From the IMG/VR virus record IMGVR_UViG_2579779034_000001: a stretch of 8,848 nucleotides of DNA; one strand, 5' to 3'. This document shows, in pieces, positions 1 to 8,848 of the stretch. How positions within the stretch are numbered: the first letter of the stretch is position 1; the number at the start of each line of letters is the position of its first letter. The DNA comes from a virus. Its lineage: Monodnaviria; Loebvirae; Hofneiviricota; Faserviricetes; Tubulavirales; Inoviridae. The position numbers were made by a program, and so were the translations under genes. Below the pieces are notes generated by a model. It was not told the origin of the DNA and ran no database searches. It saw nothing but the letters and a program-made list of their open reading frames with translations.

Positions 1-32
1 ATTGGTGCGCATAATGTGCGACTCGTTATGTT
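1..32 (+). other. dif-like XerC/XerD recombination site at the left junction (hybrid attL-like)
   Basis: Positions 5-15 GGTGCGCATAA match the E. coli dif XerC arm 11/11 (dif recalled as GGTGCGCATAA-TGTATA-TTATGTTAAAT). Central 16-21 TGTGCG matches 3/6. The XerD-arm position 22-32 is degenerate (about 5/11). Confidence 0.7.
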
Positions 33-36
33 GAAA

Positions 37-69
37 AGGCCGCTGCGAAAATCGCCTCCGCAGCGGCCT
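37..69 (-). terminator. GC-rich perfect hairpin; possible terminator for the 103..1206 gene and inner stem of a folded attP
   Basis: Stem 37-47 (AGGCCGCTGCG) pairs perfectly with 59-69 (CGCAGCGGCCT), with an 11-nt loop. On the minus strand it lies just downstream of the stop of the 103..1206 gene and is followed by a short T run (plus-strand AAAA at 34-37). Confidence 0.45.
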
Positions 70-75
70 CTTTAG

Positions 76-100
76 CATAACGTCATTGTGCGAACCAATT
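76..100 (-). other. Inverted, degenerate dif-like site (attP2-like)
   Basis: Reverse complement of 76-100 is AATTGGTTCGCACAATGACGTTATG, which resembles site 1 (ATTGGTGCGCATAATGTGCGACTCGTTATG). Positions 1-16 can pair with 84-99 (14/16 Watson-Crick) and 25-30 with 76-81 (6/6). Confidence 0.45.
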
Positions 101-102
101 AA

Positions 103-1206
103 TTATTTTTTGTCTAATATAGCACTGCTTATATTAGAATTCTTAGCTGTAAAAAGCATATCTGCTTCTTGGTATATTTCACCTGAGCCACCACTAAAGT
201 TAAACTCGATGTTTAGGTCATTATAAGTAATGCTTGGAGAGTATTTTCTGCTTATTATAATATAGCCAACTGAATTTGCAGGAACCTCAACCCTTTCTTT
301 CGGTTTTTCCATAAGATATCCATTATCATTAACAAATTCAACATTGTATTTTTTATACACTCTTATTTCTTCATCATCTCTTTTCTTTTCATCTTTATAA
401 TCAAATGTATCAACATGTTCGGAAATATATTGAAAGTTTTTATATATTCTCCATCCGCCTGAAACCTTCAGTACTTCTGATGTTTTGTTAATTATTCTAA
501 ATTTGAACATTATTTGATTTTTTTCTATCTTGGCATCTATTATTTCAATAGGGTATTCATTCGCTCTTAGATTGTAATTTTCAGTTATCAGTCCATTACC
601 TATAGGATTAATCGAAAGCCCAGAATTGTACATATTGTTATAAATCATGTAGTTATATGCTTTCAAGGGGCCCGCGAGAGGGTTGTCTTCTGTTTGGATA
701 CTGATGACCATATAACTGAAAAATGCAGCAAAAATAGCACCACCTAAGATAAAAGAACCTGCACTCGGTGGCACTGAGTCTTTTGAAAGGTATGTTTTCC
801 CGTCAGTATCTTCTGATCTTATGGAAGGCATGGTACTTTTATCAAGAATTCTTGTTCCTTCAATCAAGAGCACCATGGATATTTTTTTATTTGCTAATAT
901 TCTATCTATCTTTACAAAAGAACCTTCGGTAGTTGCATCATGATCACTTGCAATTACAGTACAAGACATACCGTTTGGGACTTTTATTTCTACATTTTTT
1001 TCTTTATCCTTACCTTTATTAAATACTGATGCATTTATTACTATTGCATTGTCAGATATTGAGGTTTTACTTAAGGAGTTCCAGCAGGATAAGTAAAGTT
1101 GTCTTTTCCTAAATATAGATAAAAACTTATTGAGGACTAATGCCACAAAAAAAGAAGTAACTACTTTCAATGTATCAGTAATCAAGTCCGGCATCTTTTT
1201 TCTCAT
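103..1206 (-). CDS. Hypothetical membrane protein, 367 aa, two predicted TM helices; AT-rich phage cargo gene of unknown function
   Basis: A 367-codon ORF in DNA of roughly 32% GC (a sampled 60-nt stretch gave 19 G+C), where stop codons are frequent by chance. Hydrophobic segments at about residues 12-32 and 148-170. No catalytic motif recognised. Weak Shine-Dalgarno. Confidence 0.75.
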   Translation of the reverse strand: MRKKMPDLITDTLKVVTSFFVALVLNKFLSIFRKRQLYLSCWNSLSKTSISDNAIVINASVFNKGKDKEKNVEIKVPNGMSCTVIASDHDATTEGSFVKIDRILANKKISMVLLIEGTRILDKSTMPSIRSEDTDGKTYLSKDSVPPSAGSFILGGAIFAAFFSYMVISIQTEDNPLAGPLKAYNYMIYNNMYNSGLSINPIGNGLITENYNLRANEYPIEIIDAKIEKNQIMFKFRIINKTSEVLKVSGGWRIYKNFQYISEHVDTFDYKDEKKRDDEEIRVYKKYNVEFVNDNGYLMEKPKERVEVPANSVGYIIISRKYSPSITYNDLNIEFNFSGGSGEIYQEADMLFTAKNSNISSAILDKK

Positions 1207-1304: not shown

Positions 1305-1310
1305 ATATCA
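1302..1310 (-). promoter_or_regulatory. Candidate extended -10 promoter element (TGATATAAT) for the 103..1206 gene
   Basis: Minus-strand sequence TGATATAAT at plus 1302-1310 fits TGnTATAAT. Its TGA is the stop codon of the upstream 139-aa gene. The palindrome 1274-1304 covers the predicted +1 region. Confidence 0.35.
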
Positions 1311-1727
1311 ATAATATGAATTTCTTCGGTGCCACCAATAAAGTAGACCGTATCCGACGATAAGAATCCCAAAAAATATCAGAGACATTCCCCAGCCAGT
1401 TCCGTACCACGAAACCATATCATCGAAAACCAACCCACCCGTTTCACGTACTCCGGCAGCTTCCTTAAGAATTGGTTTGAATACCGGAATCAGAAGGGCG
1501 ATCGCCAGTGGGGCACCCCAGCGAACAAGACCTGTTTCCATTTTGATCCCGAAAAAGATCCCCGCACCGACAACAAGCAACCAGACTATCAGGCCAGGCG
1601 CAGTTTCCAGTGCTGTTTGCCATTCAACATCGAAAGTTTTCATTAGCCAGGCAACAACTGCCAGACAGAAAGCAAATACGCCCACGACAACCAGTTCAAC
1701 GCCGCTTGTTTCGTTATTTCTACTCAT
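1308..1727 (-). CDS. Hypothetical small integral membrane protein, 139 aa, about four TM helices
   Basis: ORF with four hydrophobic stretches. Good RBS on the minus strand (AAGGA about 8 nt before the ATG). GC about 52% in a sampled stretch, clearly higher than neighbours. The antisense ORF 1477..1767 is shorter and judged spurious. Confidence 0.65.
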   Translation of the reverse strand: MSRNNETSGVELVVVGVFAFCLAVVAWLMKTFDVEWQTALETAPGLIVWLLVVGAGIFFGIKMETGLVRWGAPLAIALLIPVFKPILKEAAGVRETGGLVFDDMVSWYGTGWGMSLIFFGILIVGYGLLYWWHRRNSYY

Positions 1728-1815: not shown

Positions 1816-1998
1816 TTAATCCTTTTGTTTGGCAGACATGAGATCTTCTGCTGCATCTTTAGAGTAGTTATCAATCAGATAACCTAAAATCTCTGTCCAT
1901 GTAATTGTTTTTCCTAGTTTTACACTGGCATTTATAGCCAGTCGTTCTAGTTTCATTTTTCTTTCTTCCGTCACGTTATAAGTCGTGCGCTTTGCCAT
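1816..1998 (-). CDS. Small putative DNA-binding regulator (60 aa), divergently transcribed from gII
   Basis: 60-aa basic N-terminus (MAKRTTYNVTEERKMKLERLA). Position and orientation mirror the repressor-replication arrangement of integrative filamentous phages such as rstR-rstA in CTXphi. Function is inferred from context only. Confidence 0.5.
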   Translation of the reverse strand: MAKRTTYNVTEERKMKLERLAINASVKLGKTITWTEILGYLIDNYSKDAAEDLMSAKQKD

Positions 1999-2040
1999 TT
2001 TTTACGCTCGTTCAATGCAATATTTGAAGTGAGTATACAT

Positions 2041-2125
2041 GCTCATGAACTCATATCATCCAAGCCTCTTGAACTCACTAGCTCACTGGTGTAATGTTTA
2101 AACACTAATGAACTACTGAACTCAT
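2041..2125. promoter_or_regulatory. Divergent control region with four TGAACT(C/A)(A/C)(T/C) iterons; candidate gII promoter, operator and/or plus-strand origin
   Basis: TGAACTCAT at 2046-2054 and 2117-2125, TGAACTCAC at 2070-2078, TGAACTACT at 2109-2117, plus related GCTCACT and GCTCATG. Possible sigma70 promoter toward gII: -35 TTGAAC 2069-2074, 17-bp spacer, -10 TAATGT 2092-2097. Possible -10 TATACT on the minus strand (plus 2032-2037) for the regulator. Confidence 0.45.
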
Positions 2126-4041: not shown

Positions 4042-5358
4042 ATGAAAAGGAAAATATTAATTCTTTCCGCTGTCCTCATTTCTCCTTTTTCACATGCTGA
4101 GTCATGGGAAAGCATTACTAAATCCACTTATCAAAGTTCTGCCTACGCTGAAAGTAAGCAAATAACCAATCAGGATGGCTCTAAGACAACGGTTTACTAT
4201 ATTGATGCTGCTATGCAGGCCTCCGCTTGTCAGGGTGCTAAATCCAGTGCTCAGAGTGTATTTACTCGGGTTAAACCAACTTATGAGGGTATCTGGCCTG
4301 ATTCTGAATTCCGTCTTGTTTTTACTGGTGATTGTACTTACAGCGATTCACCAGGGCAGAAGGATAAATATTGGTCTTTAACGGCTTATATTGTTGGTAA
4401 TATTCAGCGTTCTGTTCCTGATGAAAAACCTACTGACCCGACACCAGAAGAAATTTGTGAAGCGAAGCCGCCAGAAGAAGGTGTATTTAATAATGTTGAT
4501 TCATATGATGGTGGTCGCTATATCTACTATAACGGCTGTGAATATGAGGCTACTGGTGTCATTGTTTGTCAGGGTGATGGTACTGTTTGCGCTGCAACAT
4601 GGAAGCCTACAGGTGCTGTAGCTGACCCCTCTGATAAACCCTCAACCCCCCAAAATGGCGGTGGTGAGTCCGGTGGTGGTGAGTCCGGTGGTGGTGAGTC
4701 CGGTGGTGGTGAGTCCGGTGGTGGTGAGTCCGGTGGTGGTGAGTCTGGCGGTGGTGAGTCTGGCGGCGGTAGTTCTGGCGGTAGTTCTGGCGGTAGTTCT
4801 GGCGGTAGTTCTGGCGGTGGCTCTAGTGGTTCCAGTCTTTCTAAAGGTGATATTCAGTCTGCGATCGAAGGTGCTTCACCCAAAATAGCCAGCGATATTC
4901 ATGATAAATTAACGGAGAAAGACACTTCATCAGATGATAAAAAAAATGCCGATGAACAAACCAGGAATAATATAAATCGTCTTGACGATTCCATTAACAA
5001 TCTTACGCGGGGGGCTGGCCGTTTTGCTGACCCTTCAGGTGGTGATTCTCGTTATGGAAAGGGCGACTCTGAATTAGATGGCGCTTCTACTTTAGCTGAT
5101 TCTGAATTGGGAATTGAAAAGGATTCTCACGGTGCTTTATGGGAAGCATTTTTAAATAAAGGTGCTATGCTGCCTAATTTGCCCAATGGTAACGGCTGCT
5201 CTGATTTTATTATTTTCCCCGGAGAGGTTTATCAGATTGATATTGGTTGCGATAAATTACTGACTATTAAAGATGTTCTTTCATGGGTTTTTTATTGCCT
5301 TACTTTCTGGTATGTCTTTACTTCTTTAACTTCATTGCTTCGCAAAGGGGGTGAGTGA
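4042..5358 (+). CDS. gIII: Minor coat / adsorption protein pIII (438 aa)
   Basis: Signal peptide [19 protein letters not shown]. Cys-rich segment [26 protein letters not shown] resembles M13 N1 (YEGCLWNATGVVVCTGDETQCYGTW). Gly/Ser-rich linker. C-terminus IDIGCDKL...[17 protein letters not shown] resembles M13 (IDCDKINLFRGV...FMYVFSTFANILRNKES). First ATG after the gVIII terminator. Confidence 0.9.
4657..4836 (+). repeat. In-frame tandem repeats encoding the pIII Gly-rich linker (seven 15-bp GGGES units, then 12- and 15-bp GGSS/GGGSS units)
   Basis: Seven 15-bp units GG(C/T)GGTGGTGAGTC(C/T) from 4657 to 4761, then GGCGGCGGTAGTTCT, three GGCGGTAGTTCT units (4777-4812), and a degenerate tail to 4836. 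Confidence 0.9.
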
Positions 5359-8136: not shown

Positions 8137-8445
8137 ATGGATTCTTATGGGATTTTATCTGCTCTGGCAGAACGAACGATTACAGCGGAAGAAGCAAAAA
8201 CAATGACACTTGCAGCCAGAAGTTCTTCGGCTCAGGTAAATGAAGCATCACTTGCTCTGTTACTGATTGATAATACTCTGGATGCGATCAAAGCAGCTGC
8301 CAGTGAAGGGAAAGGATACACTTTACTTCCTTCTTATGAGATTTCTGTAAAAGCCATTGATTTAGCAGAAGAATTTTTAAGGAAACAATGCGGCTATGTT
8401 ATTGATAACCAGAATGGCGTAAGGACGGTCTATTGGTTTATATGA
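8137..8445 (+). CDS. Hypothetical protein, 102 aa (accessory)
   Basis: ORF with an Ala/Leu-rich, probably helical N-terminal part; RBS-like GGGGT upstream; no recognisable motif. Confidence 0.55.
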   Translation: MDSYGILSALAERTITAEEAKTMTLAARSSSAQVNEASLALLLIDNTLDAIKAAASEGKGYTLLPSYEISVKAIDLAEEFLRKQCGYVIDNQNGVRTVYWFI

Positions 8446-8562: not shown

Positions 8563-8796
8563 ATGCAATTTTTCACATCCAGCGATACTGTAATGTTATG
8601 TGCGAAGACCTGCGATCGCTGTGGTCGCCATGCGAAGACGGTGGTAGATGACATTGAGTTCAATGAGTTTCTGTCTGTTAATCACTTAGCTGGATACGGT
8701 TCAATTTTTGGTGACAGTAATCGCTTAAAACTGGATTTATGCCAACATTGCCTGAAAGACGTCCTGGGCCAGTGGATTACGGTCTGTGACCAATGA
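8563..8796 (+). CDS. Hypothetical Cys-rich putative zinc-ribbon protein, 77 aa (accessory)
   Basis: Strong RBS GAGGAG 5 nt upstream of the ATG. Cys pairs CDRC (residues 17-20) and CQHC (60-63) plus C13 and C75, compatible with a Cys4 zinc-binding fold. Function unknown. Confidence 0.62.
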   Translation: MQFFTSSDTVMLCAKTCDRCGRHAKTVVDDIEFNEFLSVNHLAGYGSIFGDSNRLKLDLCQHCLKDVLGQWITVCDQ

Positions 8797-8831
8797 CGGC
8801 ACCGGTAACGCCAGTTCCCGCCATCCTTACC

Positions 8832-8848
8832 ATTGGTGCGCATAATGT
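8832..8848 (+). other. Start of the right-junction dif site (XerC arm), truncated by the window end
   Basis: ATTGGTGCGCATAATGT is identical to 1-17. GGTGCGCATAA-TGT is the beginning of the canonical dif core. Confidence 0.7.

Follow-up and report, generated by a model that had tools for sequence, protein, structure and literature searches.

The 8,848-nucleotide (nt) sequence analysed here over its full length (IMG/VR record IMGVR_UViG_2579779034_000001; the window below) corresponds exactly to a single unit of a filamentous (Inovirus-type) prophage, and the gene directly beside its attachment site, an open reading frame (ORF) at 103-1206 on the minus strand that we call the cargo gene, is a mobile, horizontally exchanged, self-contained single-gene cassette under selection. 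Its product is integral to the membrane and contains two beta-sandwich domains but no catalytic fold. Because its family recurs at prophage edges and among anti-phage genes, an exclusion or defence protein is the most likely kind of product. Our leading but tentative proposal, drawn from architecture and context, is that it acts at the envelope to shield the lysogen from incoming phages, much as superinfection exclusion does.

An exchangeable cassette at the prophage edge

The F11 and UR21 prophages, the closest relatives lacking the cargo gene, are 98-99% identical to the window by BLASTN everywhere except at ~102-1305 (no strand assigned); homology to them is missing from no other part of the window. 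The breakpoints fall at ~101-117, at the cargo stop codon, and at 1306, 2 nt before the stop of the neighbouring orf139. The same cassette is present at 98% identity on a second, CUS-1-like inovirus backbone in SCU-101 and TUM14759, and in TUM14759 also on a 9.6-kb circular episome. A preliminary description of the window had taken the gene for recently acquired cargo and had proposed comparison with related prophages that lack it; the single difference from F11 and UR21, together with the second backbone, bears the acquisition out.

The TUM14759 episome (L024; NZ_CP128883.1, 9565 bp, circular, labelled 'untypable plasmid') is a complete CUS-1-type inovirus genome that includes the cargo gene. 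Presumably it is the replicative form of the phage, in which case the phage would be active. Its assembly contains many homopolymer frameshifts.

F11 and UR21 fill the slot with ORFs unrelated to the cargo gene, and five further alleles were seen; the E. coli slot has at least seven unrelated occupants. Two of these match defence families: a 309-amino-acid (aa) STM4504/CBY_0614 protein (AbiJ_NTD4+DUF7014; also PADLOC PDC-S32) and a DpnII/MboI-type PD-(D/E)XK nuclease with DUF6953 (REase_DpnII-MboI; also Aga_Helical-REase and PDC-S35). The other alleles are unannotated; they include three distinct pairs of ORFs and a second member of the cargo family, 28% identical to the first (the CUS-1 allele). 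Border-proximal, swapped in content and containing anti-phage genes, the slot shows the features by which we recognised a hypervariable accessory locus ('pHVR'). Among 5426 complete E. coli genomes, the orf139 backbone piece was found in about 127, the cargo allele of the window in 17 and the CUS-1 allele in 10. Strains carrying the cargo gene are mostly human isolates. E. coli AZ184 has a tandem prophage inserted beside hipA, one copy of which is 100% identical to the window.

The gene on the inner side of the slot, orf139 (1308-1727, minus strand), encodes a multi-transmembrane (TM) protein (PHROG 4174, function unknown) and belongs to the backbone, not to the cargo, bordering every cassette type. 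In the CUS-1-type lineage it is 95% identical at the nt level and 96% at the aa level, compared with only ~80% for the Rep region there, so it is conserved better than the phage core. As an obligate partner of the cargo gene it was rejected, since it flanks all cassette types and is absent from four of the inoviruses that carry family members (those of Providencia and Morganella, L018 and L028, described below).

A perfect 13-nt inverted repeat (1274-1304, no strand; AATATTACCCTAG / CTAGGGTAATATT, 5-nt loop) lies at the right-hand end of the cassette, where it separates the stop of orf139 from the start of the cargo gene. No T-run follows the hairpin, which moves with the cassette (the SCU-101 copy is identical) and may be a terminator, an operator or a single-stranded DNA structure. 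Four other cassettes share a different hairpin, CCGYGG-GAAA-CCACGG, in this position, and two lack one. Since the hairpins that follow orf139 vary by cassette or are missing, a universal recombination hairpin of the integron attC kind at the cassette edge was rejected.

Half of the stem of the phage attachment site, attP (window 27-97; L032 3501-3571), recurs at ~460 places across the large plasmids of E. coli, directly 3' of an STM4504/CBY_0614 (abortive infection (Abi)-like) gene, with insertion sequence (IS) remnants around it and MacB/TolC genes adjoining. The plasmid copies appear to be remnants of the inovirus slot, a cassette with a piece of attP, that plasmids have picked up.

The cargo gene is under purifying selection

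The cargo ORF encodes 367 aa from the ATG at 1206 and probably 363 aa from the ATG at 1194, with its stop codon at 103-105. The second ATG is the RefSeq start (WP_102804601.1, 363 aa), is equivalent to the start in 13 of the 17 aligned homologues, and is preceded by the purine-rich GAGAAAAAAG. As the preliminary description stated, the gene is the largest outside the core, sits at the left junction (2 nt from the attachment-site hairpin on our ORF map) and is on the strand opposite to Rep and the structural genes. Its low G+C content, earlier sampled at ~32% against ~43%, is 31.8% over the whole ORF, compared with 41.3% for the phage core (2126-8067). All members of the family, the cargo gene included, have a G+C content 8-17 points under that of their own locus.

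Compared with a 98% identical allele, the ratio of non-synonymous to synonymous substitution rates (dN/dS) is 0.098 (15 synonymous and 6 non-synonymous changes). Compared with a 75% allele, the proportion of non-synonymous differences (pN) is 0.146 and the synonymous sites are saturated. Judged by these comparisons, the ORF is a real gene under strong purifying selection. The cargo gene as first described is confirmed, since the ORF, its G+C content, its helices, its family match and the purifying selection all hold.

A single family, PHROG 17621 ('unknown function'), matches the protein: the hit (E 4.5e-209) spans residues 5-367 and profile positions 1-363 of 363. No model matched in Pfam, NCBIfam and PADLOC scans, no Pfam model reached E = 1, and the best hit in a sequence-profile search of the PDB was no lower than E 0.36. 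The protein has no match to Rep, Zot, secretin or coat families, and Rep, Zot and secretin were recognised in the window and its relatives. No homologue was found among the deposited phage genomes of INPHARED, and searches of the published literature by accession and locus tag returned no match for the gene. The earlier failure to place the protein in a recognisable family is thus repeated by Pfam, NCBIfam and PADLOC, and the profile searches likewise gave no housekeeping or phage-morphogenesis family, the functionless PHROG 17621 being the only match.

A widespread orphan family at prophage borders and among defence genes

A word-indexed family search returned 21 clusters, and an exhaustive profile search returned 200 representatives at E <= 1e-3, 36 of them at E <= 1e-30. 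At 50% clustering the family has about 200 representatives that retain full length, and the close cluster holds 294 member sequences. All representatives are unnamed; their sources are Enterobacterales, Pseudomonas and metagenomes. We found no fused domains in long or distant members and no conserved partner gene across the family loci examined. One candidate member, P0124, was discarded as spurious, being an immunoglobulin (Ig)-repeat surface protein.

Seven distinct inoviruses have a family member at the prophage edge, where it follows a small regulator gene and is oriented away from Rep. They are the window, the CUS-1-like backbone of SCU-101/TUM14759, CUS-1 itself (UTI89/NU14/RS218), a Providencia and a Morganella inovirus, an IMG/VR inovirus next to hipA (L018) and a metagenomic one (L028). 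Their Rep proteins belong to three families (CRI, GPA and Rep_trans). Four further members were found at P2/HP1-like prophage borders (L017, L020, L029 and L030), and a prophage-border location is seen in at least 11 loci. In L020 the gene order is a P2-like gene D, a methyltransferase, a full-length PDC-M38A/B (AbiL-like) gene and the homologue; the L017 homologue has a GmrSD/NsnA-like nuclease nearby, that of L030 adjoins the integrase of a P2-like prophage, and that of L029 stands beside O-antigen-type acyltransferases. Another member adjoins the integrase of an integrase-plus-Toprim-primase element (L021), and several are on Enterobacter conjugative plasmids. The islet L027 combines the homologue with AIPR, a ThsB-type TIR protein and a Schlafen-like helicase; in L031 the homologue lies between HicAB and an MqsA-like pair, and in L006 and L023 it is found in islets with IS elements and an HNH protein. 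In Pseudomonas putida (L017, 10004-11052) the family gene is split into ORFs of 220 aa and 129 aa, possibly as a pseudogene or through a sequencing frameshift.

The CUS-1 lineage (UTI89, NU14 and RS218) has a 369-aa member of the family in the same slot (28% identity, E 6e-44), following an orf139 that is 96% identical (aa) to that of the window. The ORFs on the attL side have been reported to differ between CUS-1 ('orf1/orf1a') and Ypfphi (YPO2271/YPO2272), and were called functionless and without database homologues (PMC4266046). The 369-aa protein would correspond to 'orf1'. These attL-adjacent ORFs resemble the cargo gene in occupying the same slot in the same kind of phage; the CUS-1 allele differs from that of the window in being very divergent, above all in the C-terminal domain. 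The better-known gene of CUS-1, puvA, encodes the receptor-binding, pIII-like virion protein according to the same review (PMC4266046). A relation of the cargo gene to puvA, which the preliminary description had left undecided, was rejected: BLASTP gives E 1.5 against the 520-aa pIII-position protein of UTI89, and the cargo ORF is on the other strand, away from the structural operon.

Protein architecture and predicted topology

An AlphaFold2 (AF2) model built on a 17-sequence alignment is of good confidence (pLDDT 81.5); residue numbers refer to the 363-aa frame unless stated otherwise. Hydrophobic segments at residues ~13-32 and ~150-171 (367-aa numbering) correspond to AF2 helices 2-28 and 146-167, with ~115 aa between the two TM helices and ~195 aa after the second. 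The model runs from helix 2-28 through a beta-sandwich (33-135), helix 146-167 and short helices to a second beta-sandwich (216-348) with a helical insert.

TM helix 1 (1111-1170, minus strand; residues ~9-28 by hydropathy and AF2) has a short acidic N-tail ahead of it and is followed by a juxtamembrane motif, R-x-R-Q-L-Y (1093-1110, minus strand; residues 29-34), whose R31, L33 and Y34 are kept in 86-98% of 133 family members. The first beta-sandwich domain (790-1098, minus strand; residues 33-135 by AF2 strands) is conserved and, from charge and cysteine statistics, predicted to be cytoplasmic. Its family-wide conserved residues are N59, G61, E65, R98 (in IDR), and S127 and G132 (in SEDxxGK); N59, G61 and E65 lie in the NKGKDKEKN loop of the close subfamily. 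A conserved VPPSAG motif precedes TM helix 2 (694-759, minus strand; residues 146-167 by hydropathy, AF2 and alignment). The remainder is a variable, predicted periplasmic C-terminal domain (106-693, minus strand; residues 168-363) of membrane-proximal helices followed by the beta-sandwich with its helical insert.

Conservation divides the protein in two. The N-terminal half (TM1, R-x-R-Q-L-Y, the ~100-aa domain, SEDxxGK, VPPSAG and TM2) has a mean pairwise identity of 27%, compared with 16.5% for the C-terminal half, and dN of the C-terminal half is ~2x that of the N-terminal half. R31, L33, Y34, N59, G61, E65, R98, S127, G132, P142, G192, P215 and N236 are near-invariant across the family. 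The close subfamily also has invariant polar residues in or beside TM1 (N22, K23, S26, R29, R31 and Q32).

Membrane proteins follow the positive-inside rule, and exported domains avoid unpaired cysteines. Across 131 members the N-tail averages 0.15 K+R and 0.78 D+E, and the 15 residues past TM1 average 2.97 K+R. The domain between the TM helices has 1.22 Cys per 100 aa, frequently in odd counts, compared with 0.13 per 100 aa in the C-terminal domain, which has no Cys at all in 113 of 132 members. The charge bias and the cysteine pattern, two independent statistics, point to an N-out protein whose conserved domain is likely cytoplasmic and whose variable domain is likely periplasmic. The two TM helices and the ~115-aa and ~195-aa segments proposed in the preliminary description stand, and its orientation, with a cytoplasmic N-terminus, is reversed by these statistics.

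Structure comparisons returned generic Ig-like beta-sandwich matches only and no enzyme fold. An internal duplication of the two beta-sandwich domains was considered and rejected (hhalign probability 0.9%). The protein is a prophage-encoded integral inner-membrane protein with no enzymatic domain, and it has no export signal with a soluble toxin fold. The secreted toxin among the functions first listed for it is thus unlikely for an integral two-TM protein without an enzyme fold.

Proposed function and alternatives

Under the exclusion proposal, the cargo gene would be transcribed in the lysogen, because it lies 3' of and co-directional with orf60 (a putative repressor gene) and orf139. The short acidic N-tail would be translocated, TM1 would span the membrane and the RxRQLY beta-sandwich would remain in the cytoplasm; TM2, serving as an internal signal-anchor, would bring the variable ~195-aa beta-sandwich out to the periplasm. 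There this domain would bind a component of the incoming phage or the host entry machinery, and the conserved TM and cytoplasmic module would hold or block the inner-membrane step of genome entry.

Several observations suggest such a role. The cassette is a single gene without a conserved partner and would in this respect resemble prophage superinfection exclusion (Sie) proteins as generally known. The predicted periplasmic half is the fastest-evolving, and 28%-identical alleles share the slot in sister phages of the same host species. The slot is shared with Abi-like and nuclease genes, and relatives lie among defence and toxin-antitoxin genes, an association that would fit a defence role. 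The hypervariable nature of the slot, the recurrence of the family at one position in seven inoviruses, the strong purifying selection and the defence-rich border loci of Vibrio dif-inoviruses (PMC11630473, PMC12715192) also count in favour of the proposal. Among the candidate functions first listed, the genomic context, with its AbiJ-like, nuclease, AIPR and TIR neighbours, favours superinfection exclusion or defence.

Other observations weigh against this proposal. No family of known or candidate defence proteins in PADLOC-DB v2.0.0 was matched at E <= 1, and the profile scans gave no match to a Sie protein. The association with defence genes is guilt by association, and prophage borders also hold conversion and virulence genes. 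The topology has a purely statistical basis, and the strongest conservation is cytoplasmic, which is superfluous for a pure periplasmic blocker and is the feature least well explained. A strong hairpin separates the cargo gene from orf139 and no promoter of its own was recognised at 1207-1305, so that its expression in the lysogen is a presumption. AT-rich genes in E. coli are often silenced by H-NS.

The main rival, which we consider less probable, is an Abi-type membrane defence in which infection is sensed by the variable periplasmic or the conserved cytoplasmic domain, and the TM helices would then assemble into oligomers that depolarise or permeabilise the inner membrane, killing the cell before phage is released. 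Its slot and neighbourhoods are held in common with AbiJ-like, AbiL-like PDC-M38 and AIPR genes, and the family extends beyond prophages to plasmids and chromosomal islets. The pairing of a conserved and a variable module is typical of sensor-effector defence proteins, invariant polar residues lie in and beside TM1 of the close subfamily, and TM effectors are common in Abi systems (PMC12715192). However, the protein has just two TM helices and no likeness to known pore-forming or TM effector models, there is no partner gene to restrain a toxic effector, and no sign of toxicity was seen, the gene being stable in tandem prophage copies.

A broader idea, which we offer with reserve, is that the family is an unrecognised single-gene TM anti-phage system. 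Its fast-evolving periplasmic beta-sandwich would sense a component of the incoming phage and signal through the inner membrane to the conserved cytoplasmic beta-sandwich and RxRQLY module, which would execute exclusion or Abi. It would mean that the cassette circulates among inoviruses, P2-like phages, plasmids and defence islets, and that the attP-adjacent slot is an exchange point for defence cassettes like the P2/P4 hotspots.

Readings outside defence together hold roughly a quarter of the probability. The somewhat better of them, though improbable, is a lysogenic-conversion or host-fitness factor, an inner-membrane protein that alters the envelope or signalling (stress tolerance, colonisation or virulence) to the direct benefit of the lysogen. 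CUS-1 and Ypfphi have modest in-vivo fitness effects (PMC4266046), and the border loci of inoviruses include virulence genes such as ctxAB and TDH (PMC12715192); the carriers of the cargo gene are mostly human isolates, and the O-antigen-type acyltransferases beside the L029 homologue mark a classic conversion locus. However, the CUS-1 fitness phenotype arose from interruption of puvA, at a locus other than the cargo slot (PMC4266046). The two-TM protein is neither secreted nor surface-exposed, and the gene occurs in only 17 of the 5426 E. coli genomes. The family spans Enterobacterales and Pseudomonas from varied sources, with neighbours of the defence and toxin-antitoxin rather than the virulence kind.

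A role in the life cycle of the inovirus itself, through modulation of assembly or secretion, damping of extrusion stress or control of co-resident inoviruses (polylysogeny), is slightly less probable again. It would account for the seven inovirus types with a member at the same position and for an inner-membrane location like that of inovirus assembly proteins, and tandem and multiple prophage copies are common. The accessory modules PfiAT and KKP of Pf control virion production besides defence (PMC11341870, PMC12328805). However, phages 98-99% identical in the core do without the gene and have unrelated cassettes instead, so it is dispensable for morphogenesis, and P2/HP1-like prophages, conjugative plasmids and islets also have members, without an inovirus in the vicinity.

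That the ORF is a silenced or decaying hitch-hiker with no current function is very improbable given the selection data: it is AT-rich and a likely H-NS target, lacks a recognised promoter, has a 1-nt deletion in the TUM14759 copies and is split in the P. putida locus, but the dN/dS of 0.098, the pN of 0.146 with saturated synonymous sites against the 75% allele, the 294 sequences of the close cluster and the about 200 full-length representatives all speak for a maintained gene. The TUM14759 frameshift was rejected as evidence of decay, since nearly every gene of the region is frameshifted in that assembly and the deletion is probably a sequencing error.

Other features of the prophage

The window opens with ATTGGTGCGCATAATGT and closes with the same dif-like XerC arm. 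The recurrence of this XerC-arm sequence at the window end (8830-8848, with GGTGCGCATAATGT repeated at 8835-8848) identifies the window as one unit of a tandem array. The attP (1-101, no strand) is built from a pair of dif-like sites in inverted orientation, GGTGCGCATAA...TTATGTTGAAA and an imperfect inverse (inverted repeat 24-47/59-82), that form a long forked hairpin with a central bulge as single-stranded DNA (-30.9 kcal/mol, z -7.4); the attP of CTXphi has this architecture. The GC stem at 37-75, with a T-run after it on the minus strand, may also end the cargo transcript. An Rfam scan of the window found no RNA family.

The plus strand encodes Rep (PF05144/PF05155), a single-stranded DNA-binding protein, coat, pIII-like and pVI-like proteins, a Zot-like protein and a secretin. 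A G+C peak of 53-56% at ~4650-4890 (plus strand) is due to the GGGES/GGS repeats of the pIII-like gene, the usual glycine-rich linker, and ORFs in the opposite frame at this place are artefacts. Two conserved plus-strand ORFs (8137-8445 and 8563-8796; PHROG 4115 and 5435, function unknown) separate the secretin gene from the junction, at the position of ctxAB in CTXphi. The 77-aa product of the right-end pair has CxxC...CxxC spacing with weak zinc-ribbon matches. In the second tandem copy of AZ184 (L001 18817-21743) the secretin gene is interrupted by an ISEcp1 transposase, with no resistance gene annotated beside it. In both tandem CUS-1-like copies of SCU-101 (L025 6996-8132 and 15429-16565) the Zot-domain gene is longer (378 aa) and no secretin gene is annotated ahead of the right-end ORFs; this prophage may be a deletion derivative that relies on a host or helper secretin.

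The leftward block orf60-orf139-cargo begins with orf60 (1816-1998, minus strand; PHROG 2503) at the position equivalent to rstR. The only minus-strand sigma-70-like match upstream of the block lies at 2032-2059 (minus strand) and is a consensus match only; the count of such matches in the promoter scan was no higher than shuffles predict. The position of orf60 is analogous to that of the RstR-like YPO2273 of Ypfphi (PMC4266046), which would make it a putative repressor gene.

Comparison with known systems and significance

Inner-membrane Sie proteins encoded by prophages include HK97 gp15, P22 SieA and T4 Imm. Like the cargo protein, they are the products of single small-to-medium prophage-expressed genes, integral to the inner membrane and non-enzymatic, with poorly conserved sequences, and their genes are found among morons or at prophage borders. 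The cargo protein differs in being larger and in having a predicted folded domain on either side of the membrane, of which the cytoplasmic is the conserved one, and no sequence or fold relationship to HK97 gp15, P22 SieA or T4 Imm was found. The AbiJ-like STM4504/CBY_0614 protein (AbiJ_NTD4+DUF7014) shares with it the position in sister prophages, the single-gene cassette and a similar size, and its gene also travels with the attP-stem fragment on large plasmids. However, it is soluble and helical, unlike the two-TM beta-sandwich cargo protein, and a relationship between the two was rejected (E 0.048). The 'phi-x-phi-x-N-x-G' strand-loop motif of Ig-like, CARDB, DUF11 and FixG_C beta-sandwiches is present in both cargo domains, and these folds imply binding at most.

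If exclusion or defence is the true function, the family would be a new and unusual one, with folded domains on both sides of the membrane and no enzyme, among the resistance genes spread by small filamentous prophages across E. coli, Salmonella, Enterobacter, Proteus-group bacteria and Pseudomonas. It would supply a function for the attL-side ORF of CUS-1, listed as functionless from 2002-2014 onward, would extend the hypervariable-locus principle of Vibrio to the hipA/dif inoviruses of extraintestinal E. coli, and would make the hipA/dif slot a handy place to mine further systems. If it is not defence, the cargo family is still a well-defined orphan family.

The closest parallel to the slot is in dif-inoviruses of Vibrio, whose border-proximal hypervariable accessory loci ('pHVR') are enriched in defence genes (PMC11630473, PMC12715192). 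Like the E. coli slot, these loci lie near the border beside a transcriptional regulator and between conserved phage genes, and their content is swapped between near-identical prophages; some of it is defence genes, most of it is unannotated, and TM proteins are frequent. The E. coli slot differs in lying directly at the folded attP, after a conserved 139-aa membrane protein. The Vibrio studies cover Vibrionaceae only and do not describe the hipA/dif inoviruses of E. coli or the cargo family (PMC11630473, PMC12715192), and literature searches by accession or topic returned nothing on either the slot or the family. Since the Vibrio loci and the attL variation of CUS-1 and Ypfphi have been described, this kind of locus is known. 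What appears to be new, in the literature searched, is that the hipA/dif slot of E. coli serves as an exchange point for cassettes and that the CUS-1 ORF and the cargo ORF belong to one widespread family, together with the architecture and topology of that family. The cargo gene is thus ordinary in kind, as prophage hotspot cargo, yet it represents an uncharacterised, recurrent and structurally unusual orphan family.

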